Source: Bacteroidales bacterium (GTDB taxonomy: Bacteria > Bacteroidota > Bacteroidia > Bacteroidales > DTU049). From it: a stretch of DNA of 64,000 nt. The translations under genes and the position numbers were made by a program. A model generated the notes under the pieces. The model saw only the letters and a list, made by a program, of their open reading frames with translations. It did not search any database and had not been told where the DNA came from. The stretch covers positions 8,867-72,866 of the forward strand of contig JAAYOU010000029.1 in assembly GCA_012520175.1 (NCBI GenBank), in the 5' to 3' direction. Positions within the stretch are counted from its first letter, which is position 1. Each line of letters opens with the position of its first letter. Shown one piece after another: positions 2,061 through 32,790 of the stretch.

Positions 2061-5000
2061 TTATTTTTTTACTATTTGTATAATACCAACACTTTCACCC
2101 ATTTCTACACGCACCATATAGATTCCTGCAGGCAAGCTAGAAATATTAATTTCTCGCACATCGCCAGTGTTTTGAGCTACAATAGAGCTAAGCATATTAT
2201 ATACGCTTACAGTGGTAATTGTTTCCTTTGTTTCTATGTGCAAAATGTCTTGTACAGGGTTGGGATAAACTGTAATGTTTTGAGCAGCAAAATCTTCTAT
2301 GCTTGTTTCTACAAACTCTGCCACAATATTTACGTCTGCTACAACAATGTGTGTGCTGCCATTTTCAATTGTTTCGCCATTTAAAGTTAATGTTTGAAGT
2401 TTATAATCTGGGTTTGGTGTTGCAGTAATAATAATTGCTGCACCTTTATCAACTTTGCTGCCAATCGCTACCGGAGATCCGTTTGCTGTTACGCTAAGCG
2501 TACCGTGTTCTGGTATGTTGTAAGTTACGGTATATTGTGCTGTTTCTTCAACAAATTCTGCTACAATATTTACATCTGCCACAACAATATGAGTGTTGCC
2601 GCTTTCAAAAGGATTGCCATTTACAGTTAGAGTTTTAAGTTTGTAACCATTGTCTGGTGTAGCTGTAATAGTTATTTCGCTGTTTTTATCAACTTTGTCG
2701 CCACTTACGAGTGCTATTGTATCTAGCATTACGCTAATTGTGCCATTTTCAGGCGTTGCGAAGGCAATAGTAAACTGCTCGATTGGTATTTCCTCAAACT
2801 CAGCGGTTATTGTAACATCAAACGCAGGCATTTCAAATGTCATGCCGTTGAGCGGAACTTCTTCCGTTTCTTCGCCGGTTTTGTAAGCACGCAAAGAGCC
2901 ATCTTTCAATTTGTAGCCATCATCGGCACTAGCAGTTATGGTTACAGTTTCGCTGAATACAACTGGGCTTGCTGGTATAAATGACAGAGAACCGTTGGTA
3001 ATACCCTCAGCGATAGTAACTGCATAGCTGTTAATATCCCACTTAGCATACAACGTAAAACTGCTAGTTACCTCTGTATTAAAGTCGTATTCGTTTTGTA
3101 GCTCAGTATCAGTAAACCAGCCAATAAAGGTATAGCCCTCTTTGGTGGGAGTTTCTGGTTCAGTGAGTTTGTCTCCGTGGTTTATGGAGGTATCAGCTAT
3201 TGTGCTACCGCCATTAGTGTTAAAGGTTATGGTGTAAACCTTTATTTGCCACTTAGCATACAGTGTAAAACTGCTAGTTACCTCTGTATTAAAGTCGTAT
3301 TCGTTTTGTAGCTCGGGGTCGCTGTACCAACTCGCAAAGGTATAGCCCTCTTTAGTGGGAGCTTCTGGTTCGGTGAGTTTGTTGCCATGAGCAACGGTAA
3401 CGTTATCAACTGCAGTTCCACCATTAGTATTAAAGCTGATAATGTAAGCAGGTACTATCTTCACTGTATCTTTGATTATATTGCCAGCAGTATCGCAGAC
3501 AGCTTTTTCGTTAGGATTGAACACAGCACCAGCAGGCTCTACAATTACACAACTAATAAGTTCTACATCATTAAAGTTACGGATTGAGCCATAGTTTGTA
3601 CCAATTGCCGAAACTGTGGCATTTTCAATGGTAAGAGTATCAAGAAAATCGCCGGCAAAACCGCATGTTTTCCCTATTGTATTTACTGTACAGTTACGTA
3701 TAGTTAAAGATGAGCTATTGAAGGTAGATATCCCTGATTTATTTTTAGCGTTTATGTTAAGCGTACCGCTACCATCAATGGTTGCAGAATTTCCAGAAAA
3801 ATGAACTGTTGGGTAGTTCACACTTGATAAGTTATTATTGCCCACAATATCAATTTTTAGGTTTTCAATTTTATTGTTGATAGCATAAAGCTCTCCTGTT
3901 GCACAAATTGTAGCATCTTCAAGTTTTAGAGTTTTTGTATCAGGGTTGTAGCTTACCGAACCTTCTACACCATTTATAACGCTTAAATCATCTTTATTAA
4001 GATTTGTTACCTGTACATCACAAATCCAAAGGTCATAATAAATAATCGGCTTTATTTTTACTGTATCCGTGATGATATTACCATCAGCATCACAAATTGC
4101 CTTTATACCGTTGTTAAATACTGCTCTGGCAGGTTCAAAAATGCCACAGTTGACAAATTTTATATTTTTAAAGCCCATAATAGTACCGTCTTTTACCCCA
4201 TAAGATTTTAAAGATGCGGTTATCGTAGCGTTGTCAAAGGTAAGTGTCTTTTCGCCTGAATCACCAAAAATAGCGTTTCTACCACCAGTAACTTCAACAG
4301 TACAGTTTTTAATAGTTAGCGAGCCATTTTTCATAAATATTGCTCGGTCTTCTGCGTGAGTATTTGATAATTTAAGCGTCCCGCTACCCTGAATTGTGCC
4401 TGAAGTGTTATTTTGGAAAGCTATAGGAGACCATTCGTTACCAGTTAGATTATTAGTGCCGGAAACATCTATTTTCATATTATCAATTAGGGAAAGAATG
4501 CAGCACGTTTGCCCTGTGGTGGACATTGTTGCTCCGTTAAGCGTAAGAGTTTTCGAGTCAGAGTTGTAGCTTACCGTACCTGTTACACCATTGATAACGC
4601 TTAGGTCGTCCTTATTGGCATCAGTTACTTGCTCGCCACAAATCCATAAATCATATTTAGATATACCAATCTTTACTTCGCTTTTAATTACATTGCCATC
4701 AGCATCACAAACGGAGCCATTTATTATCTGTGCATCAGCAGGCGAGATAAAAGAGCAACCATTAAGGGTTATTCCTCCGGAAAATTTAGTAATAGAGCCA
4801 TAACTCCCTTTGGCTGTAACGGTAGCACCATTAACAATAAGAGAAGCATCCTCTGCTCCTTGGAACCCGAATCTTGCACCGATAGCGTTTACCGTACATT
4901 TCTTTATGGTAAGAGTGCTTCGATAAACCCATATCGTATTGGTGTAATATGCCTCTGAACTCACATTTAATGTGCCGCTGCCTTGGATAGTAACATCATT

Positions 5001-5369
5001 ATTAATATGTATTGCACAGGAACATCCTTCTTTAGCTGTTATCGTGTTGTTTCCTATAAGCTCTATTTTCAGTCCATTACATTGGGATGAAAAACAATAG
5101 AATGATGCAGATTTGATGGTAGCGCCGTTAAGCGTAAGGGTGTTGGTGGTAGAGTTATAGTTTACTATACCCGTTACCGTACAGCCATTTGTACCATTGA
5201 TAACGGTTAGGTCGCCCTTGTTGGCATCTGTTACCTGTACGCCGCAAATTTTAAGGTCGTACTCTGCTGCTTGCAAATTAGCAGCACCGAATAGCATCGC
5301 CACGAAAAAAGCAAGCGTAAATCTGAATTTGTAATTGTTTTTTTTCATTTTATTTTGATATTTTTTCAT
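2061..5369 (-). CDS. modular T9SS-secreted surface protein (3 N-terminal ~200 aa repeats, 2 Listeria-Bacteroides/Flg_new repeats, 3 InlB-B-like Ig repeats, T9SS C-terminal domain)
   Basis: Signal peptide. Three units begin YDL(K/W)ICG.QVT..NK.DL.VING. Two copies of the NTNGG....V..G.KLTEPE.PTKEGYTF..W..D.ELQNEYDFNTEVTSSFTLYAKW repeat. The C-terminus VYPNPVQDILHIE...GIYMVRVEMGESVGIIQIVKK is typical of a type A sorting domain. Confidence 0.9.
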   Translation of the reverse strand: MKKYQNKMKKNNYKFRFTLAFFVAMLFGAANLQAAEYDLKICGVQVTDANKGDLTVINGTNGCTVTGIVNYNSTTNTLTLNGATIKSASFYCFSSQCNGLKIELIGNNTITAKEGCSCAIHINNDVTIQGSGTLNVSSEAYYTNTIWVYRSTLTIKKCTVNAIGARFGFQGAEDASLIVNGATVTAKGSYGSITKFSGGITLNGCSFISPADAQIINGSVCDADGNVIKSEVKIGISKYDLWICGEQVTDANKDDLSVINGVTGTVSYNSDSKTLTLNGATMSTTGQTCCILSLIDNMKIDVSGTNNLTGNEWSPIAFQNNTSGTIQGSGTLKLSNTHAEDRAIFMKNGSLTIKNCTVEVTGGRNAIFGDSGEKTLTFDNATITASLKSYGVKDGTIMGFKNIKFVNCGIFEPARAVFNNGIKAICDADGNIITDTVKIKPIIYYDLWICDVQVTNLNKDDLSVINGVEGSVSYNPDTKTLKLEDATICATGELYAINNKIENLKIDIVGNNNLSSVNYPTVHFSGNSATIDGSGTLNINAKNKSGISTFNSSSLTIRNCTVNTIGKTCGFAGDFLDTLTIENATVSAIGTNYGSIRNFNDVELISCVIVEPAGAVFNPNEKAVCDTAGNIIKDTVKIVPAYIISFNTNGGTAVDNVTVAHGNKLTEPEAPTKEGYTFASWYSDPELQNEYDFNTEVTSSFTLYAKWQIKVYTITFNTNGGSTIADTSINHGDKLTEPETPTKEGYTFIGWFTDTELQNEYDFNTEVTSSFTLYAKWDINSYAVTIAEGITNGSLSFIPASPVVFSETVTITASADDGYKLKDGSLRAYKTGEETEEVPLNGMTFEMPAFDVTITAEFEEIPIEQFTIAFATPENGTISVMLDTIALVSGDKVDKNSEITITATPDNGYKLKTLTVNGNPFESGNTHIVVADVNIVAEFVEETAQYTVTYNIPEHGTLSVTANGSPVAIGSKVDKGAAIIITATPNPDYKLQTLTLNGETIENGSTHIVVADVNIVAEFVETSIEDFAAQNITVYPNPVQDILHIETKETITTVSVYNMLSSIVAQNTGDVREINISSLPAGIYMVRVEMGESVGIIQIVKK

Positions 5370-5465
5370 TTTTAGCGTTGAGTGTTTAAAGTTTGGAAAG
5401 CGTTACCTTGAGTTTCTTGAATTGTTGAAAAAGTTTTTCGCGAGTCTGTGTTTTGAAAATTTTTG

Positions 5466-5473
5466 CAAAAATA
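5466..5473 (-). promoter_or_regulatory. candidate -7 box (TAnnTTTG) for the 2061-5369 adhesin gene
   Basis: The plus strand reads caaaaata, which is tatttttg on the minus strand, about 97 nt upstream of the ATG at 5369. Confidence 0.3.
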
Positions 5474-5495
5474 TAAGAAATTAAAATTCTTTTTG

Positions 5496-5528
5496 GTGGC
5501 TAAACATAAAAATCTTAGTGGCTAAACA
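5496..5528 (-). promoter_or_regulatory. direct repeat pair gtggctaaaca x2, 22-bp period, upstream of the candidate promoter
   Basis: gtggctaaaca at 5496-5506 and 5518-5528, i.e. 23-55 nt upstream (in the minus sense) of the -7 box. Confidence 0.3.
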
Positions 5529-6159
5529 ACAAATTTTAATTAATAATTAATAAATGTGTGAATTTATTTTTATGGTTATCATTTTTTCATAAATCCGTTA
5601 ACATTCTACAACATTCATTCTGTCATCTGAACATAGTATAGCAACAATTTCACCCGCTCATCATACACAAATAATTGGTTATCAAAATCTTGCACAAAAC
5701 AACCAGTTGCGTGTAACCACTTAATTATCACCACATTACATAGTCAGCTGCAATTTTGTAATTAAATAACATTTTTTTGAACCATTAAGGCATTAAGAGA
5801 CATTAAGAAATTGACTATATTCACCTTACGTAAAGCGGATGTCTTTTTGCAATACGCTGATTATCAGCAACTTACGCAACAAAACCTTTAAACCTAACAG
5901 GTTTCTAAAACCTATCAGGTTTATACATTGTTGCATGTCTGTAACTGCTTGTGTATTAGCAATTTATGCGGGCGACAAGCGAATAGCGAGCCCCTACTAA
6001 ACACTAAAAACCATTTTATAACTCATTGATTATTAGCAATTTATGCAAAGCGGATGTCTTTTTGCAATACGCTGATTATCAGCATCTTAGGCAAAGTGGG
6101 CACCATTCGCTAAACCGTTGATTGTCAGCGACTTATATGAGTGGCAACAAAACAACCTA

Positions 6160-7197
6160 TCATGCTTTTTTCCTTATTTTTTCCAATAAGTCGCTAAAAT
6201 CTTGTGGGAATTGACTTTTAAAATAAAGTTCTTTCCCATTTTCAGGATGAACAAAACCTATAACTGCGGCATGTAAAGCCTGCCTTGGCATTATTTCAAA
6301 ACAATTATCTATAAATTGCTTAAATTTAGTAGTTGCATTTCCTTTAACAATCGTTTTTCCGCCATACATTTCGTCAGCAAACAATGGATGCCCGATATGC
6401 TTCATGTGTGCTCTTATTTGGTGCGTGCGTCCTGTTTCTAATTTACATTCAACAAGAGTTGCAAAGCCAAATCGCTCAATAACTTTATAATGAGTTAGCG
6501 ACCATTTCCCTTCATTTTCGCTTTCATACATAGTCATAACCCTTCTATCGCGCTGGCTACGTGCAATATATCCGCTAACAACTCCACTTTCGTTTTGCAA
6601 ATCTCCCCAAACAAGAGCGTAATACAATCTGTTTGTGGTGTGATTATAAAACTGTTTTGCCAAGTGCGTTTGTGCAAATTCTTCTTTTGCAACAACCAAC
6701 AATCCGCTTGTATCCTTGTCTATGCGATGAACCAATAATGGGAAAGTATCGTTTTCATTATTTGACTGAAAATGATATAAAAGTGCATTTAGCAACGTAT
6801 GCTCATAATTATTATATCCCGGATGAACCACCATTCCTGCTTTTTTATCAACAACAAGCAAGCTTTTATCTTCGTAAACAACATCAAGCGGAATGTTTTC
6901 TGGCAACAAATCAAGCTCTAGTGGCGGTTTTGGTAAAACTATAACAATTTCATCGCAAGGTTTTATCTTATAGTTTTGTTTGACTGGCTTGTCGTTCACC
7001 AACACACTATCAGCTTTTATGGCATTTTGAATTTTATTTCTGCTAACGCTTCCGCCAATGCGATCTACTAAAAATTTATCTATTCTAAGCAGAGACTGCC
7101 CTTTATCAACAATGAGTCTAAAATGTTCGTACAGTTCTTTTTCATCATCTGCCAAATCCGACTGATCTGTATAATAATTTAATTTATCAGAATCCAT
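6160..7197 (-). CDS. rluD: RluA/RluD-family 23S rRNA pseudouridine synthase
   Basis: N-terminal S4 domain (RIDKFLV....SRNKIQNAIK...VLVN). Catalytic motif HRIDKDTSGLLVVAK and the GRTHQIRAHM motif. Confidence 0.9.
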   Translation of the reverse strand: MDSDKLNYYTDQSDLADDEKELYEHFRLIVDKGQSLLRIDKFLVDRIGGSVSRNKIQNAIKADSVLVNDKPVKQNYKIKPCDEIVIVLPKPPLELDLLPENIPLDVVYEDKSLLVVDKKAGMVVHPGYNNYEHTLLNALLYHFQSNNENDTFPLLVHRIDKDTSGLLVVAKEEFAQTHLAKQFYNHTTNRLYYALVWGDLQNESGVVSGYIARSQRDRRVMTMYESENEGKWSLTHYKVIERFGFATLVECKLETGRTHQIRAHMKHIGHPLFADEMYGGKTIVKGNATTKFKQFIDNCFEIMPRQALHAAVIGFVHPENGKELYFKSQFPQDFSDLLEKIRKKA

Positions 7198-27382: not shown

Positions 27383-28960
27383 ATGCAAAGACCACAACAA
27401 CCTTTAATTTATTCCATATTAATTGCCTCCAGTTTTGTTTTAGGTTTTTATTTTTCTAAATATTCTCCTAAAAACAACATAAAATCTTCTAACAACAAAA
27501 TAGACGAAGTAATTCAGTATGCTTACGACAATTACGTTGACAGCATAAGCAAAGAAAAACTCACTGAAGATGCTATTGCAGGAATGCTAGAAAGGCTAGA
27601 CCCACATTCTGTATATATTCCAAAAACAGAGGCAGAAGCCATCAACAACCAATTAAGTGGCTCATTCGAAGGCATTGGCATTCAATTCAGAATTGAAAGC
27701 GACACTATTATTGTAATAGACCCTATTGCAAACGGACCGAGTGCAAAAAAAGGAATTATGCCCGGAGACCGCATTGTGAAAGTAGATGGCAAAAATGTTG
27801 CCGGTATAGGAATAAAAAACGAAGATGTAATGAAGTTGCTTAAAGGAAAAAAAGGAACAAAAGTAACTCTAAGCATTCTCAGAAGAGGCGTTGTTGGACT
27901 TAAAGATTTCGTAATCATTAGAGATGTTATTCCGCTAAACAGCTTAGATGCTTCTTTTATGATTGACAAAAACACCGGATATATAAAATTAAACGCTTTT
28001 ACCTCCACTACATACGATGAGTTTTCTGCTGCCATGAATGATTTGCTAAACGTAGGAATGAACAATTTAATTTTAGACCTACGTGATAATGGCGGTGGAT
28101 ATTTAGACCACGCTGTTAATATTTGCGATGATTTCTTAAAAAAAGGAAATGTAATCGTTTACACAAAAGGCAATAATAGAAAAGAAAGATTTTACAGGTC
28201 ACATAGTCATGGCAAATTTGAATATGGTAAAGTTGCTGTGCTAATTGATGAATTTTCCGCTTCTGCAAGCGAAATTGTTGCTGGAGCAATACAAGACAAT
28301 GACAGAGGGTTAATTATCGGGAGACGCTCTTTTGGAAAAGGTCTTGTTCAGGAGCAAAAAGATTTAAGAGACGGCTCTGCATTCAGGCTTACTGTTGCAC
28401 GTTATTACACGCCAAGCGGACGTTGCATACAGCGACCATACCAAAAAGGTTATGAAGAATATTATTTAGATTTTTACAAATCTCTTATGCTGAACGACTC
28501 TACAGCAAAAGAACACAACCTGAAAAAGAACGACTCGCTTGTTTATTACACCACCAAAGGTCGTCCTGTTTATGGCGGCGGAGGAATTATTCCAGACTCG
28601 CTTGTATTGCACGATTTCACTATGTCCATTGGTTTTCAAAATACATTTTTTTCTTCAGGAAAATTATTGGAAGAGGTTTTTCATTTTGCAGATGTAAATC
28701 GAACAGAAATAAAAACTAAATACCAAAACACTTCTGTTTTTGTAAACTCTTTCACAGTGCCAGAATCATTGGTTAATTCAATTTTTTCAAGTTCGGGAAT
28801 AAATATTGCTAACGTAAATCCTCAGGATAAAAAAATTGGCACAATGTTTATAAAAGCATTTTTAGCAAGAGAACTTTATGGCTTAAATGCTTATTTCAAA
28901 ACAATTACACCGCACGACAATATGGTGAAAGTGGCTTTGGGGTATTTTTATGAAAAATAA
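27383..28960 (+). CDS. ctp: S41-family carboxy-terminal processing peptidase
   Basis: PDZ region (GIMPGDRIVKVDG), LDLRDNGGGYL, catalytic Ser context SASASEIVAGAIQD, and GRRSFGKG. The ATG at 27383 is preferred over the track's TTG at 27380. Confidence 0.9.
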   Translation: MQRPQQPLIYSILIASSFVLGFYFSKYSPKNNIKSSNNKIDEVIQYAYDNYVDSISKEKLTEDAIAGMLERLDPHSVYIPKTEAEAINNQLSGSFEGIGIQFRIESDTIIVIDPIANGPSAKKGIMPGDRIVKVDGKNVAGIGIKNEDVMKLLKGKKGTKVTLSILRRGVVGLKDFVIIRDVIPLNSLDASFMIDKNTGYIKLNAFTSTTYDEFSAAMNDLLNVGMNNLILDLRDNGGGYLDHAVNICDDFLKKGNVIVYTKGNNRKERFYRSHSHGKFEYGKVAVLIDEFSASASEIVAGAIQDNDRGLIIGRRSFGKGLVQEQKDLRDGSAFRLTVARYYTPSGRCIQRPYQKGYEEYYLDFYKSLMLNDSTAKEHNLKKNDSLVYYTTKGRPVYGGGGIIPDSLVLHDFTMSIGFQNTFFSSGKLLEEVFHFADVNRTEIKTKYQNTSVFVNSFTVPESLVNSIFSSSGINIANVNPQDKKIGTMFIKAFLARELYGLNAYFKTITPHDNMVKVALGYFYEK

Positions 28961-28968
28961 GAGAGTTT

Positions 28969-29106
28969 GTAGTGCTTAGTGTTGAGTGCTTAGTTTTTAG
29001 TTGGGGCGGCGGGCGCCCGTAATCGCTTGATTATCAGCGACTTATGCAATACATGACTAGAAAGCTGTCGCCACCACACAACTGATTGATTATCAATGTT
29101 TTATAA
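28969..29106 (+). repeat. mosaic intergenic repeat copy (left arm plus two 21-nt cores)
   Basis: gtagtgcttagtgttgagtgcttagtttttagttgg (28969-29004) parallels 32608-32632. Cores at 29027-29047 (ttgattatcagcgacttatgc) and 29086-29106. Confidence 0.75.
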
Positions 29107-29206
29107 AAGTGTTAGTTCATATGCTAAAAATTGTAGCATTTATAAAACTAATTCACATACCATATTCTACAACATTGACAATAAATTGTAATTAACTTCG
29201 TTTTTC

Positions 29207-29236
29207 AGGGAGTTGTTTTTTTCTAACTCCCTTTTT
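29207..29236 (+). terminator. rho-independent terminator-like hairpin
   Basis: agggagtt (29207-29214) / aactccct (29225-29232), then a T-run. It lies downstream of the glyQS-wHTH-ctp unit and only 11 nt before the ATG at 29248. Confidence 0.5.
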
Positions 29237-29247
29237 AAAATAAATAT

Positions 29248-30150
29248 ATGAGATTATTTTGCTTTAGCTGTCTGTTATTTTTATTATTTGCTTGCACCAA
29301 AGAAATAAATATTGAATTGCCTAAGCAAGAGCCAAAAATAGTAGTTAATTCTTTATTTACTAATAAAGAGCCTTTTCAAGTTTATCTTACTAAAACAAGA
29401 ACTCCTTTTGAAACTAAAGAGTTTTTTATTGATAATGCTAAAGTCATTATTTATTCTGGAAATATAGCTGATACTCTTCAATATACGGGTGATGGAATTT
29501 ACACGTCAAGTGTTTTAGGGTTGGCAAATTCTGAATATAGAATAGAAGTAATATCTGATGGTTTTGATAAGGTTACATCTAAAGATTATATTCCTAAGCA
29601 AATAGAGCAACCTATGATAAGTGGTTTTAGAGATAGTGTTGGGGTGGATGAAGAAGGGTATTATTATTCGCAGTTTACTATTGCTTTTAAAGATGATGCA
29701 AGCGAAAGAAACTTCTATGAAATTTCCATTAAAGATTTAGTTTTTGGTGATGAAACATGGGTTAAGCCTTGTTTTTCAAATGACCCCATTATTGTTGCAG
29801 AGGGTTTAAACGATTATTATCCAAAGACAATAGTGTTTTCAGATGCTTTTTTTAATGGAAAAGAAAAGGAGTTAGCAATAAATTATTATCCTGTAGCCTA
29901 TGGCAAACCAAGTGGAGGAAGTGGCGAATTAGTTGATGCTAACTATAAAGTAATTGTTCGTTTTAAAAATATTTCGGAGAATTATTATAAATACAAGAAG
30001 AAGTTAGAAGTTCATTTATCCGGACAAGATTTTGATTTTTGGGAAGGTTCAGGAGATCCTGTGCAAATGTTTTCAAACATTACAGATGGTTATGGCATAT
30101 TTGCAGGCTATACCGAAATAGTAGATACGATACAAAAGTTAAAAAAATAA
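29248..30150 (+). CDS. DUF4249-like lipoprotein (TonB-receptor-associated)
   Basis: Lipobox LLFACT. The size (300 aa) and adjacency to a CarboxypepD_reg-type TonB-dependent receptor fit. The family call is from context memory. Confidence 0.55.
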   Translation: MRLFCFSCLLFLLFACTKEINIELPKQEPKIVVNSLFTNKEPFQVYLTKTRTPFETKEFFIDNAKVIIYSGNIADTLQYTGDGIYTSSVLGLANSEYRIEVISDGFDKVTSKDYIPKQIEQPMISGFRDSVGVDEEGYYYSQFTIAFKDDASERNFYEISIKDLVFGDETWVKPCFSNDPIIVAEGLNDYYPKTIVFSDAFFNGKEKELAINYYPVAYGKPSGGSGELVDANYKVIVRFKNISENYYKYKKKLEVHLSGQDFDFWEGSGDPVQMFSNITDGYGIFAGYTEIVDTIQKLKK

Positions 30151-30267
30151 TCATGAACAAAAAAATCATTTTATTATTCTTTGCCGTTTTGCCAATATTG
30201 CCTATAGGGCAAGAAGCTAAGCGAAATAGATTTATTGAAATTGTTTCATGCTAATTATAATTTTTTT

Positions 30268-32607
30268 ATGAAAAGGCTGTTTTTCTTTTTCTTTATAATT
30301 TATCAAAGTTGTTTGTTTGCTCAAAATATTACTGTTAGCGGTTATATAGAAGATGAACAAACAGGAGAGCGACTAATAGGAGCAAGTGTTTTCGATGCTT
30401 CGTCTAAAACAGGTACAACATCAAATAGCTATGGTTTTTTTAGCATTTCTTTTGCCAAAGGCAGCGTTGTTAACTTACGCTTTTCTTATGTTGGCTATGA
30501 ATCAATAGAAAAAACTTTGATTGTAACAGAAAACAAGCAGCTAAGTATCAAACTTAAGCCTAATTTAATGCTTAATGAAGTTGTGGTTGTTGCTAGCCAA
30601 GATAAGCCTATAGAGCAGAAATTAGAAATGGGCGTTGTTTCCATTCCGATTAAACAAGTTAAGCTACTTCCTGCGTTGGGTGGCGAAAGTGATGTTCTAA
30701 AAGCCATACAATTAATGCCCGGTGTGCAATCGGGAAATGAAGGCACTAGCGGGCTGTATGTTAGAGGTGGTAGCCCTGACCAGAATTTAATGGTGCTAGA
30801 CGATGTGCCTTTGTATTATGTGAATCACTTAGGTAGCTTGGTTTCAATTTTTAATTCTGATGCAATAAGTAACATAAGTCTTATCAAAGGAGGCTTCCCA
30901 GCACGATATGGCAATCGCTTATCTTCTGTTATGGACATAAGAATGAAAGATGGCAATTTAAAAGAATTTAAAGGCAACGCTATGATTGGCATGGTGGCAT
31001 CAAAAATATCTGTTGAAGGTCCAATTAAAAAAGATACTAGTTCTTACATTGTTTCGTTTCGTAGGTTTATGTATGATTTAATCACAAGACCTTTATCTAA
31101 GATTGTTTTTAAAAATGTATCTGCGGGCTACACTTTTTATGATTTTAATGCAAAACTAAATTATAAGTTGTCTGATAAGGATAGGCTGTATTTTAGCGTC
31201 TATTCTGGAAAAGATAAAATGATTACTAAAATTAAAGATAAATCAGATAATAGTAAATACAAGAACATAGCTTCTTTGGGTTGGGGTAATAATTTAGTTG
31301 CTATTAGGTGGAATCACTTATTTAATACAAAGCTGTTTTGCAACAATACGATTTCTTACTCACAATACAAATACAAAACTGGACTTGAAAATATAGAAAA
31401 TATAGGGCAATATGAAGAATCTATATTTAATGGGTTTACTTCCGGAATAAACGATTTATCAATAAAATTTGATTTTGAATACTATCTTTCAAAAAGATAC
31501 AAATTAATTTTTGGTGTCAACAGCATTTATCATACTTTTATTCCTAATAAAGAAAAGTATAGACATAGCATAAATGACTCGTCTATTACAGATACTTTAT
31601 TTGGCAATTATTCATTAAAAGCTCTCGATAATGCTTTTTACGTGGAAAATCTTTTTCAAATTGGGAAAAGTCTTTCTGTAAATGCAGGTGGTCGTCTTTC
31701 TCATTATTACGTAGAAGACACGAACTTTGTTAATTTGGAGCCGCGGATTTTGGTGAATTACCTTGTTGGTGAGAAAAATTCGATAAAAGCATCGTATTCT
31801 CAAATGTTTCAGAACATTCATTTGCTAACAAGTTCTGGAACAGGTGTGCAAACTGATTTATGGCTACCAGCGACAAAAAAAGTAATACCTCAAAAATCTT
31901 CGCAATATTCATTGGGAGCAGCTTCAACTCGAAATATCAATAATCAGACTTACGAAATATCAATAGAGTTTTTTTTCAAGAAACTTCAAAATTTAATTGC
32001 ATATAAAACGGGTGCTAGTATTTATGGTTCTTCTTTTGATTGGCAAGATAAAATAGAAAAAAACGGCAAAGGTGTTTCAAAAGGAATTGAGCTGCTAATT
32101 AATAAGAAAACAGGCAAGACTACAGGCTGGATAGGCTATACATATTCAAAAACAACTCATAAATTTGAAAATATTAATGAAGGTGCTGAATATCTTTTTA
32201 AATATGACAGACCTCATGATATAAGTATTGTTATAATACATAAATTGAATAAAAATATTAATTTTTCATTAACGTGGGTTTATGGGACAGGAAATCCAAT
32301 TACTTTGCCAGTTGGCTCATATTCTATAATGACCGAAATGGGTTTAGGGCAAATATATATTTATGAAGGTATAAATACATTTAGGATGAGGGATTATCAT
32401 AAATTGGATATTGGTTTTAATTTTAGTAAAGAAAAAAAATGGGGCACAAGAACTTGGAATGTGAGTGTTTACAATTTATATAATCGCAAAAATCCTTATT
32501 TTTATTATTTTGAAAGCAAATATTATTATGTTGGCAGCGAAACTGTATTAAAGCAATTAAGCTTGTTTCCAATAATGCCTTCTGTAAGTTATAGTATTAG
32601 TTTTTAG
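30268..32607 (+). CDS. TonB-dependent receptor with N-terminal carboxypeptidase-regulatory-like domain
   Basis: Signal peptide MKRLFFFFFIIYQSCLFAQ. ITVSGYIEDEQTGERLIGASV (CarboxypepD_reg). Plug motifs DVLKAIQLMPGVQSG and GLYVRGGSPDQNLMVLDDVPLY. Terminal F residue. The start is moved to the ATG at 30268. Confidence 0.9.
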   Translation: MKRLFFFFFIIYQSCLFAQNITVSGYIEDEQTGERLIGASVFDASSKTGTTSNSYGFFSISFAKGSVVNLRFSYVGYESIEKTLIVTENKQLSIKLKPNLMLNEVVVVASQDKPIEQKLEMGVVSIPIKQVKLLPALGGESDVLKAIQLMPGVQSGNEGTSGLYVRGGSPDQNLMVLDDVPLYYVNHLGSLVSIFNSDAISNISLIKGGFPARYGNRLSSVMDIRMKDGNLKEFKGNAMIGMVASKISVEGPIKKDTSSYIVSFRRFMYDLITRPLSKIVFKNVSAGYTFYDFNAKLNYKLSDKDRLYFSVYSGKDKMITKIKDKSDNSKYKNIASLGWGNNLVAIRWNHLFNTKLFCNNTISYSQYKYKTGLENIENIGQYEESIFNGFTSGINDLSIKFDFEYYLSKRYKLIFGVNSIYHTFIPNKEKYRHSINDSSITDTLFGNYSLKALDNAFYVENLFQIGKSLSVNAGGRLSHYYVEDTNFVNLEPRILVNYLVGEKNSIKASYSQMFQNIHLLTSSGTGVQTDLWLPATKKVIPQKSSQYSLGAASTRNINNQTYEISIEFFFKKLQNLIAYKTGASIYGSSFDWQDKIEKNGKGVSKGIELLINKKTGKTTGWIGYTYSKTTHKFENINEGAEYLFKYDRPHDISIVIIHKLNKNINFSLTWVYGTGNPITLPVGSYSIMTEMGLGQIYIYEGINTFRMRDYHKLDIGFNFSKEKKWGTRTWNVSVYNLYNRKNPYFYYFESKYYYVGSETVLKQLSLFPIMPSVSYSISF

Positions 32608-32790
32608 TGTTGAGTGTTTAGTTTTTAGTTGGTGCGGCGGGCGCTCATAATCGCTTGATTATCAACGACTTACGCCGCCGCACCCAAAACAACTAAACTA
32701 AACGGTCGCCACTCTGTAACTACTTGTGTATTAGTAATTTATATAAGGCGAACGCTACTCGCTAATTCGCTGAGTATCAACACTTTACGC
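32608..32790 (+). repeat. mosaic intergenic repeat copy: long imperfect hairpin plus two further cores
   Basis: ggtgcggcgg (32631-32640) pairs perfectly with ccgccgcacc (32675-32684). The 34-nt loop carries part of the core at 32655-32675. The flanking arms gtttagtttttagtt / caaaacaactaaactaaac extend the stem imperfectly. Further cores at 32724-32744 and 32770-32790 (46-nt unit 32745-32790). Confidence 0.8.

Follow-up and report, generated by a model that had tools for sequence, protein, structure and literature searches.

A species-specific mosaic family of intergenic repeats, built on a predicted protein-site palindrome, in a Bacteroidales bacterium

The DNA analyzed here (the window, C134:8867-72866) is a stretch of 64,000 nucleotides of contig JAAYOU010000029.1 from a Bacteroidales bacterium, whose genome is a 2.68-Mb metagenome-assembled genome (MAG) of 166 contigs with 32.5% G+C and 98.7% completeness. 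The host belongs to the Bacteroidota and carries GldB and type IX secretion system (T9SS) genes. Within the window, a 790-bp gap separates rluD (6160-7197, - strand) from the gene of a T9SS-secreted repeat protein (2061-5369, - strand), and this gap is occupied by an array of short repeats. The original prediction, made from the letters alone, had described these repeats as a dispersed, mosaic intergenic family similar to bacterial interspersed mosaic elements (BIMEs), with a 21-nt core found 11 times, and had interpreted them as relatives of repetitive extragenic palindromic (REP) elements or as small structured RNAs. The family itself is confirmed by genome-wide searches, which revealed hundreds more copies and a strong intergenic restriction; the interpretation is only partly supported, as described below.

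When all genome matches to the core were aligned, conservation was found to run 10 nt further to the left, which yields a 31-nt unit, YRTAACTnnYTGATTATCARyrnyTTAYGC. The 21-nt core is the right two-thirds of this unit, each unit starting 10 nt before its core. A position weight matrix (PWM) located 13 units in the window, all on the + strand with large strand margins and all intergenic, starting at 1546, 5665, 5711, 5847, 5939, 6016, 6062, 6108, 29017, 29076, 32645, 32714 and 32760. The 11 cores listed earlier are all real and score 20.7-41.1 bits over the 31-nt unit: the cores at 5857, 29027 and 32655 fit the consensus exactly, 6026 has one mismatch, 6072 and 32770 have two, 5949 and 6118 three, 29086 four, and 1556 and 32724 six, for a chance expectation in the window of 0.0 at ≤2 mismatches and 0.11 at ≤3.

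What is the anatomy of the array beside rluD? It had been counted as five copies at 5371-6138; the array is real but holds seven units once two weak ones are included, and it is partly the product of local duplication (positions 5810-5879 and 6025-6094 are 86% identical). Read along the + strand, it begins with these two degenerate units, which lie 46 nt apart (5665-5695 and 5711-5741; 15.6 and 18.7 bits) and were absent from the earlier list, followed by a repeated A+T-rich module, CATTTTTTTGAACCATTAAGGCATTAAGAGACATTAAGAAATT (5770-5812), with about 12 further genome copies detected by blastn-short. A 46-nt repeat at 5832-5877 then combines a 15-nt spacer, AAAGCGGATGTCTTT, with the unit 5847-5877 (35.9 bits). 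A double-hairpin module of no assigned strand (5889-5923) precedes a unit with a degenerate centre, TGTGTATTAG (5939-5969, 29.0 bits), after which positions 5970-6015 contain a spacer module, GGGCGACAAGCGAATAGCGAGCCCC, and an inverted copy, CTACTAAACACTAAAAACC, of the arm module described below; this segment has 6-11 further genome copies and its spacer module is also found in the 91-nt spacing class. Three units in a strict 46-nt register complete the array at 6016-6138 (6016-6046, 6062-6092 and 6108-6138; 29.7, 30.7 and 21.0 bits); they are separated by 15-nt G+C-rich spacers and constitute the direct-repeat family D1. The 46-nt unit that had been proposed is thus a 15-nt spacer plus a 31-nt unit, and its copies at 5832-5877 and 6047-6092 indeed match at 44 of 46 positions, while the two sibling units share 28 and 30 of 46 positions with it, each starting with AARG(C/T)G. 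At the far end of the gap, a weak left-arm copy, TTAGCGTTGAGTGTTTAA (5372-5396, + strand, two mismatches to TTAGTGTTGAGTGTTTAG), adjoins the start codon of the T9SS cargo gene; it stands alone, about 290 nt from the nearest unit, and blastn-short found no match to it elsewhere in the genome.

The remaining units of the window, also on the + strand, form a solitary copy and two arrays. The solitary unit (1546-1576, 25.2 bits) lies where gldB and the T9SS cargo gene converge; this 1102-aa cargo gene (2061-5369) has + strand units on both sides. The array at 28976-29106 consists of a left arm (28976-29005), a G+C-rich stretch and the units 29017-29047 and 29076-29106 with a 28-nt spacer between them. 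The array at 32597-32790 consists of a left arm (32597-32632) and the units 32645-32675, 32714-32744 and 32760-32790; the 38-nt spacer after the first of these belongs to the CGCCGCACCCAAAAC...AAAC family. These two arrays, each opening with a direct left-arm module, bracket a gene pair for a DUF4249 protein and a TonB-dependent receptor (29248-32607).

Across the genome, the PWM finds about 802 units at ≥10 bits, compared with about 4 in the shuffled genome. The earlier observation that the copies are always intergenic holds for 13 of 13 units in the window and for 788 of the 802 genome-wide, which lie outside open reading frame (ORF) calls covering 87% of the genome. The units form 263 clusters of 1-11 units that together span 46.7 kb, or 1.7% of the genome and 13.7% of its non-ORF DNA. 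Convergent gaps contain 34% of the clusters and make up 12% of all gaps, a three-fold enrichment. The distance from a cluster to the nearest stop codon is about 85 nt, and that to starts about 180-220 nt. Where the two flanking genes run the same way, clusters are antisense to the upstream gene in 70 cases and sense in 34. tRNA genes are not preferred neighbours: a unit lies within 300 nt of 4 of the 40 tRNAs in the host genome, as often as expected by chance. As had been argued, the unit is not a promoter: it contains no TTTG, the Bacteroidota sigma-A elements (TTTG / TAnnTTTG at -33/-7) were not found, there is no orientation tie to the downstream gene, and units of either orientation lie nearer to 3' ends than to starts.

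The constant orientation reported for the copies is exact within the window (13 of 13 units) but not a general rule, both orientations being used genome-wide with a local tendency only: orientation agrees 519 to 20 within clusters and 123 to 43 between neighbouring clusters. Since neighbouring clusters tend to agree, four + clusters in one window are unremarkable. Cluster orientation is only weakly anticorrelated with gene strand (r = -0.28) and with GC skew (r = -0.24), and we therefore rejected the possibility that it is set by transcription or replication.

The skeleton of the unit is an imperfect palindrome, TAA-N4-YTGAT-W-ATCAR-N4-TTA. Is it read as a hairpin or as double-stranded sequence? 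Covariation within the unit is absent: at 25 of 25 mirrored pairs, Watson-Crick pairing equals the expectation for independent columns, with a mutual information of ≤0.03 bit, and this includes the variable Y/R positions. Complementarity of a flank to its own partner does not exceed that to a permuted one. Nor do neighbouring units covary with each other (4887 complementary pairs observed, 4921 expected), and neighbours share about as many identical positions as random units do (20.8 versus 20.7 of 31). Conservation is nevertheless sharp at particular positions: TAA and TTA are kept in 99-100% of units, the T adjoining the core in 100%, and the G and C of TGAT/ATCA in 93%, whereas other G/C positions are about half changed and certain A/T positions of the N4 blocks are free to vary. 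Because the skeleton is kept while the variable positions are scrambled, the constraint must be position-specific and not driven by composition. Given the lack of covariation and this position-specific conservation, the symmetry of the unit is most readily read as that of a double-stranded sequence, in the manner of a protein-bound site. The unit is not fully symmetric, with a central T in 97% of copies and strand-specific bases at positions 6, 7 and 9 on either side of the centre. Taken together, it is likely that the unit is a double-stranded protein site embedded in BIME-like mosaics.

Each array is a mosaic of units, G+C-rich spacer families, the TTAGTGTTGAGTG "arm" and small hairpin modules. 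Centre-to-centre distances between units peak at 46, 50, 58, 69, 79-81 and 91 nt, every peak representing one family of diverged spacers; these average 60% G+C, compared with 26% in other intergenic DNA. The spacing classes differ by about 11 bp (period about 11.0-11.5 bp, Rayleigh R = 0.47), which could reflect helical phasing or could be a mere product of there being few spacer families. The left arm has the form (TTAGTGT/TGAGTGT)n-TTAGTTGG, and TTAGTGTTGAGTGTTTAG has 256 genome matches at ≤3 mismatches, against 5 in shuffled sequence; in 147 of these the arm has the orientation of the units and lies on their 5' side, and in 56 it is inverted and lies within an array or on its 3' side. A separate left-arm module had been predicted, and it exists genome-wide, with coordinates that needed shifting by a few bases (starts in the window at 5372, 28976 and 32597/32604).

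Among the other modules, the 33-nt double hairpin (AAACCTnnCAGGTTT twice) is present in 28 full genome copies, one of them at 5889-5923, and in 64 half-copies (43 blast matches to the 5889-5923 module). On the - strand, this copy resembles a terminator, with a 16-bp stem followed by a T-rich tail. The module can be written as AAACCT-nnC-AGGTTT twice and nearly always contains one G·T on one strand, seen as an A·C mismatch on the opposite one; insertions are found in both orientations and follow no rule relative to genes or units. A role of the 5889-5923 module as an oriented terminator was rejected, the G·T/A·C asymmetry being accompanied by no gene-orientation rule. There is also an A+T-rich palindrome module, TTTCTGCAAAATTTTTTG...CAAAAAATTTTGCAGAAA, and arrays contain several further repeat modules. 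An A+T-rich module bearing long inverted repeats (TTTCTGCAAAATTTTTTGTA...TACAAAAAATTTTGCAGAAA) occurs about 30 times inside arrays (for example C9:654-967, C17:38487-38789 and C52:11292-11563). Finally, entire blocks of several units, 200-400 nt long, are found again on other contigs with 75-94% identity.

How stable are the arrays? The 5360-6165 region is identical in eight independent biogas-fermenter assemblies except for one single-nucleotide polymorphism at a variable unit position, and the other two arrays of the window are identical in four assemblies. The organism is present in the biogas-fermenter projects PRJNA311377-9 and PRJEB8813. The strain L049 (Logan assembly) has 23 differences over 6.4 kb, of which 15 fall inside the 288-nt gap 28961-29247; many are G/C-to-T changes in the spacer, and the copy number is unchanged. 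Divergence of the gap in this strain (L049:3192-3513 versus window 28940-29260) is about 40 times that of the flanking genes (5.2% versus 0.13%), and five of the changes fall within 10 nt of a G+C-rich spacer. In all eight congeners examined, rluD is followed by a gap of 10-80 nt and then by the gene of a 415-aa membrane protein, the host orthologue of which sits on C139 without an array. Because the gene after rluD differs in the congeners, the 5371-6138 array marks a synteny break or an insertion. The congeners (66-72% amino-acid identity, 36-48% G+C at the locus) are too diverged for an empty-site comparison; the 32.5% G+C of the host genome compares with 36-48% at the loci from genomes of its genus.

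No mobility gene could be linked to the arrays. The Y1/RAYT (REP-associated tyrosine transposase) domain PF01797 has no match in the 98.7% complete host genome and was found in 6 of 14 control genomes. All-against-all blastp of the ORFs revealed no multicopy gene beside arrays, the largest paralogue family having eight members, all secreted proteins; these negatives apply to a MAG of 166 contigs with 68 clusters at contig ends, in which copies of insertion sequences (ISs) may be missing. The expectation that the repeats are not fragments of a coding gene or of an IS terminus agrees with this lack of an adjoining multicopy gene. Block copying and local duplication are visible and may have contributed to the spread of the family; no dedicated transposase was found.

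Is the palindrome specific to this species? The exact 25-bp form occurs 282 times in the host genome, 0-5 times in each of 30 relatives and 0-1 times in each of eight genomes of the same GTDB genus. In a sample of 400 genomes of the phylum, about a third of the roughly 100 same-class genomes carry 1-6 exact palindromes, compared with about 8 single matches in total in the roughly 300 genomes of other classes and 1 match to a reversed control pattern across all 400. This distribution, set against the control, shows that the palindrome is a real low-copy feature of the class that has been amplified in this species only. In other genomes, 17 of 20 scattered palindromes are intergenic, beside unrelated genes, and just 1 of 23 is adjacent to a tRNA gene; a regulon was rejected as the explanation of these sites because the neighbouring genes are unrelated. 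Full-text literature searches found no description of the motif or of REP-like repeats in Bacteroidetes.

Phage contigs carry the palindrome as well. A scan of IMG/VR yielded at least 114 loci with the palindrome and 72 with the reversed control, all of the latter singletons; 47 among the 114 loci listed contain two or more units by PWM, versus 0 of the 72 control loci. In the phage contigs L138 and L070, pairs of units around a G+C-rich spacer, 48-50 bp apart, occupy nearly every gene gap, with the same architecture as the 46-50-bp spacing class of the host. In L138 (IMGVR_UViG, 8.7 kb) and L070:2493-8381 the spacer of the pair is partly palindromic, and the pairs usually start just past a stop codon, 70-150 nt ahead of the next start.

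What protein might read the unit? WATCARNNNNTTR is the established consensus of Escherichia coli IHF, and direct sequence comparison shows that the skeleton fits it on both strands: the right half reads T-ATCA-R-N4-TTA and the left half, on the other strand, A-ATCA-R-N4-TTA, at positions that are 90-100% conserved. This larger imperfect palindrome with its two IHF-like matches was absent from the original prediction. A DnaA box (TTATNCACA) and a Fur box, compared by eye, were rejected, neither accounting for the outer TAA/TTA blocks or for the array context. As in the λ H' site (PDB 1IHF), six conserved, four free and three conserved positions follow each other, and the bases match on both strands of the unit. 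Canonical IHF sites differ in being asymmetric, read by a heterodimer and flanked by an A-tract on the other side.

The host has three genes of the HU/IHF family: two tandem classical HUs with an N-P-R-T-G arm, and a 94-aa protein on C25 (HU3, C25:18431-18712). The classical genes lie on the same strand (C51:15685-16423), and their products may form a heterodimer. HU3 has IHF as its best PDB and NCBIfam matches, below the equivalog cut-offs. All 49 genomes sampled from the same class encode exactly one orthologue, and only weak matches were found in 10 of 151 genomes of other classes; this distribution mirrors that of the palindrome. The arm tip of HU3 is R-N-I in place of the intercalating-proline motif R-N-P, as it is in 15 of 16 aligned orthologues (loci L241-L256); in L255 it is R-D-I. 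We know of no sequence-specific site for any HU/IHF-family protein of the Bacteroidota. Genomes of Bacteroidetes encode one to three classical HU/IHF proteins (PMC5499826, PMC6606824). The same reviews name one family member, BHFa, as the host factor for CTnDOT integration in Bacteroides thetaiotaomicron and give no sequence-specific site for it (PMC5499826, PMC6606824). BHFa and HU3 are alike at the family level, belonging to the same small clade of one to three classical HU/IHF paralogues per genome; BHFa is an architectural factor of classical size in Bacteroidia that mobile elements use. Its role as CTnDOT host factor is credited in these reviews to Ringwald and Gardner, 2015.

These comparisons suggest a model in which the 31-bp unit acts as a double-stranded, predicted protein site and not as a hairpin or RNA, and in which the host IHF-like protein, the candidate binder, would bend the DNA at each unit. 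Units and G+C-rich spacers, set at preferred distances and joined with arm and hairpin modules, would then make up non-autonomous arrays. As a whole, a species-specific mosaic intergenic family founded on a predicted protein-site palindrome, with an IHF-like protein as candidate binder, is the explanation that we favour with moderate confidence. Taken separately, the proposal that the binder is an IHF-like member of the HU family is tentative, and we would lean neither far towards it nor far from it. From the sequence we infer protein binding and the IHF-like character of the binder, as well as any consequence for nucleoid structure, transcription or mobile-element integration.

Several observations weigh against this explanation: (i) the match to IHF is a resemblance to a nine-position consensus at the level of sequence; (ii) in the IHF-H' complex (1IHF), WATCAR starts 1 bp past the dyad and the kinks are 9 bp apart, whereas the half-sites of the unit share their central base and the C|A steps are 7 bp apart, so that one dimer could not read both halves in the canonical register, and the unit would be two overlapping sites, or the geometry of the binder would differ from that of IHF; (iii) the candidate HU3 has no intercalating proline; (iv) a symmetric homodimer leaves the polarity of the unit and its orientation within arrays unexplained, although shared descent could explain them; (v) the spacing period is about 11-11.5 bp and not 10.5, and could reflect a small number of spacer families; (vi) the class-wide distribution of HU3 is a weak correlation, many genes being class-specific; and (vii) the near-identity of the array in eight assemblies gives no sign of current mobility.

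Could the unit instead be the site of a different sequence-specific binder, such as the core site of a tyrosine or serine recombinase, one of many stoperator-like operators of a phage or mobile-element repressor, or the target of a ribbon-helix-helix or other TGATWATCA dimer? A palindromic, double-stranded and non-covarying pattern would suit any dimeric DNA binder, the central 9 bp are the most conserved part, and the half-site register would be 2 bp tighter than that of IHF. The fixed polarity of the unit is also reminiscent of recombination sites, with their lox- or dif-like inverted arms and conserved centre, and arrays bracket gene cassettes in the window. Yet the outer TAA/TTA lie exactly 4 bp past ATCAR as in WATCARNNNNTTR, which a 9-bp operator does not explain, and the three window arrays exhibit neither copy-number nor inversion polymorphism in 7-8 independent assemblies. 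Phage contigs with one site pair per gene gap recall mycobacteriophage stoperators, numerous repressor sites scattered over gene gaps, L138 and L070 having unit pairs in nearly every gap. Unlike stoperators, the motif is shared by phage contigs that are unrelated and by host chromosomes throughout the class, its paired sites surround a G+C-rich spacer, and no repressor is linked to it; class-wide scattered sites beside unrelated genes suit a conserved host factor better than a phage-specific repressor. A phage-encoded HU was rejected as the binder, an HU-like protein being present in only 1 among the 114 phage loci listed, where other phage-encoded binders were not searched for. Overall, we consider a binder of this other kind unlikely, though far from negligible.

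The family might also be a decaying, functionless repeat resembling miniature inverted-repeat transposable elements (MITEs), bound by nothing, whose apparent conservation is a by-product of A+T-biased mutation in copies of a single ancestral sequence. Most variable positions are indeed C/T or G/A alternatives at an ancestral G or C, the 32.5% G+C of the genome and 26% of its other intergenic DNA fit such a bias, as do the G/C-to-T changes in the L049 gap, and amplification is limited to one species, with arm-like inverted ends present. However, decay of this kind does not account for the retention of the G and C of TGAT/ATCA (93%) where other G/C positions are about half changed, or of TAA/TTA (99-100%) where A/T positions in N4 are free. 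Divergence between neighbouring units equals that of random pairs, yet 800 copies keep the skeleton; the same skeleton clearly exceeds the control in other Bacteroidia and in phages with no spacer sequences in common; and short spacers are still 60% G+C amid a background of 26%. We thus regard mere decay as quite improbable.

A function of the arrays as RNA (structured small RNAs, 3'-untranslated-region stabilizers, terminators or sites for RNA-binding proteins) would agree with their position about 85 nt past stop codons, with the terminator-like appearance of the embedded 5889-5923 module on the gene strand, and with array folding that is slightly better than that of shuffles (z = -2.7 and -3.5). 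This excess comes mainly from the separate hairpin module and not from the units, and that module follows no gene-orientation rule. Moreover, Rfam gave no match at gathering thresholds over the 64 kb and none at E≤1 over 5300-6250, covariation at the mirrored pairs is absent, units are sense (34) or antisense (70) to the upstream gene and also occupy convergent gaps, and a palindromic consensus has no rationale in a single-stranded RNA motif. The small structured RNA family that had been proposed is thus contradicted, and an RNA role in general appears very improbable. Least probable by our estimate is a strict REP/BIME system of single-strand DNA hairpins spread by a RAYT (IS200/IS605-type Y1 transposase), which the intergenic clustered mosaics, their G+C-rich segments and their enrichment past 3' ends and between convergent genes would recommend, but which is opposed by the absence of PF01797, by the lack of covariation in the unit, in its flanks and between units, and by a conserved part that is A+T-rich and read as sequence; the REP/RAYT analogy drawn earlier consequently falls. 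With no covariation, no Rfam match, no Y1/RAYT gene and no adjoining multicopy gene, the unit is neither a REP hairpin nor a structured RNA nor the end of an IS, and the family resembles BIMEs in organization without being a REP/RAYT system or a structured RNA.

The closest known parallel is E. coli BIME-1 (RIB-RIP: REP y, an L linker with an IHF site, and REP z1). Both are mosaic, non-coding intergenic clusters of few module types, enriched past 3' ends and in convergent gaps, with a site that fits WATCARNNNNTTR and hundreds of copies per genome. They differ in that BIME-1 has a single IHF site in the linker between REP hairpins, while here the predicted IHF-like site is itself the repeated unit, doubled into a palindrome; in addition, the G+C-rich segments belong to diverged spacer families that lack conserved stems, a RAYT is absent, and the phylum is Bacteroidota. 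REP/RAYT elements and MITEs are likewise short, non-autonomous, intergenic and high in copy number, and the arms here are sometimes inverted at array ends as in MITEs; the present family differs from them by its lack of hairpin covariation, of a Y1 transposase and of a multicopy transposase-like gene. Relative to IHF, the half-sites of the unit share the central base pair and would be set 2 bp tighter than the 9-bp kink spacing of 1IHF, and the candidate HU3 is presumed to be a homodimer in which Ile replaces the intercalating Pro.

Beyond this species, it is possible, and in our view doubtful, that the single-copy R-N-I IHF-like clade of Bacteroidia (possibly of the BHFa type) is a sequence-specific architectural protein that prefers TAA-N4-YTGATWATCAR-N4-TTA, that phages of these bacteria place pairs of this site in their gene gaps, and that about 800 copies, built into mosaic arrays, have colonized the present biogas-digester species. 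If so, the arrays would represent a large share of the cell's high-affinity sites and might influence how the nucleoid folds; by binding the factor they might also keep it from phages and integrative elements that enter the cell, or else recruit these. A motif of 25-31 bp that is strongly over-represented, non-covarying and common to chromosomes and phages provides a candidate site plus a candidate protein for the Bacteroidota, which dominate guts and digesters and whose mobile elements (CTnDOT and others) need a host factor. BIME-like mosaics can arise outside the Proteobacteria without a RAYT, around a predicted protein site instead of a hairpin, and they can reach 13.7% of the non-ORF DNA in one species, with next to none in its relatives. 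The arrays also have a practical consequence, in that they fragment short-read assemblies: contig ends coincide with 68 of the 263 clusters, and several public contigs (L051, L054) stop inside arrays.

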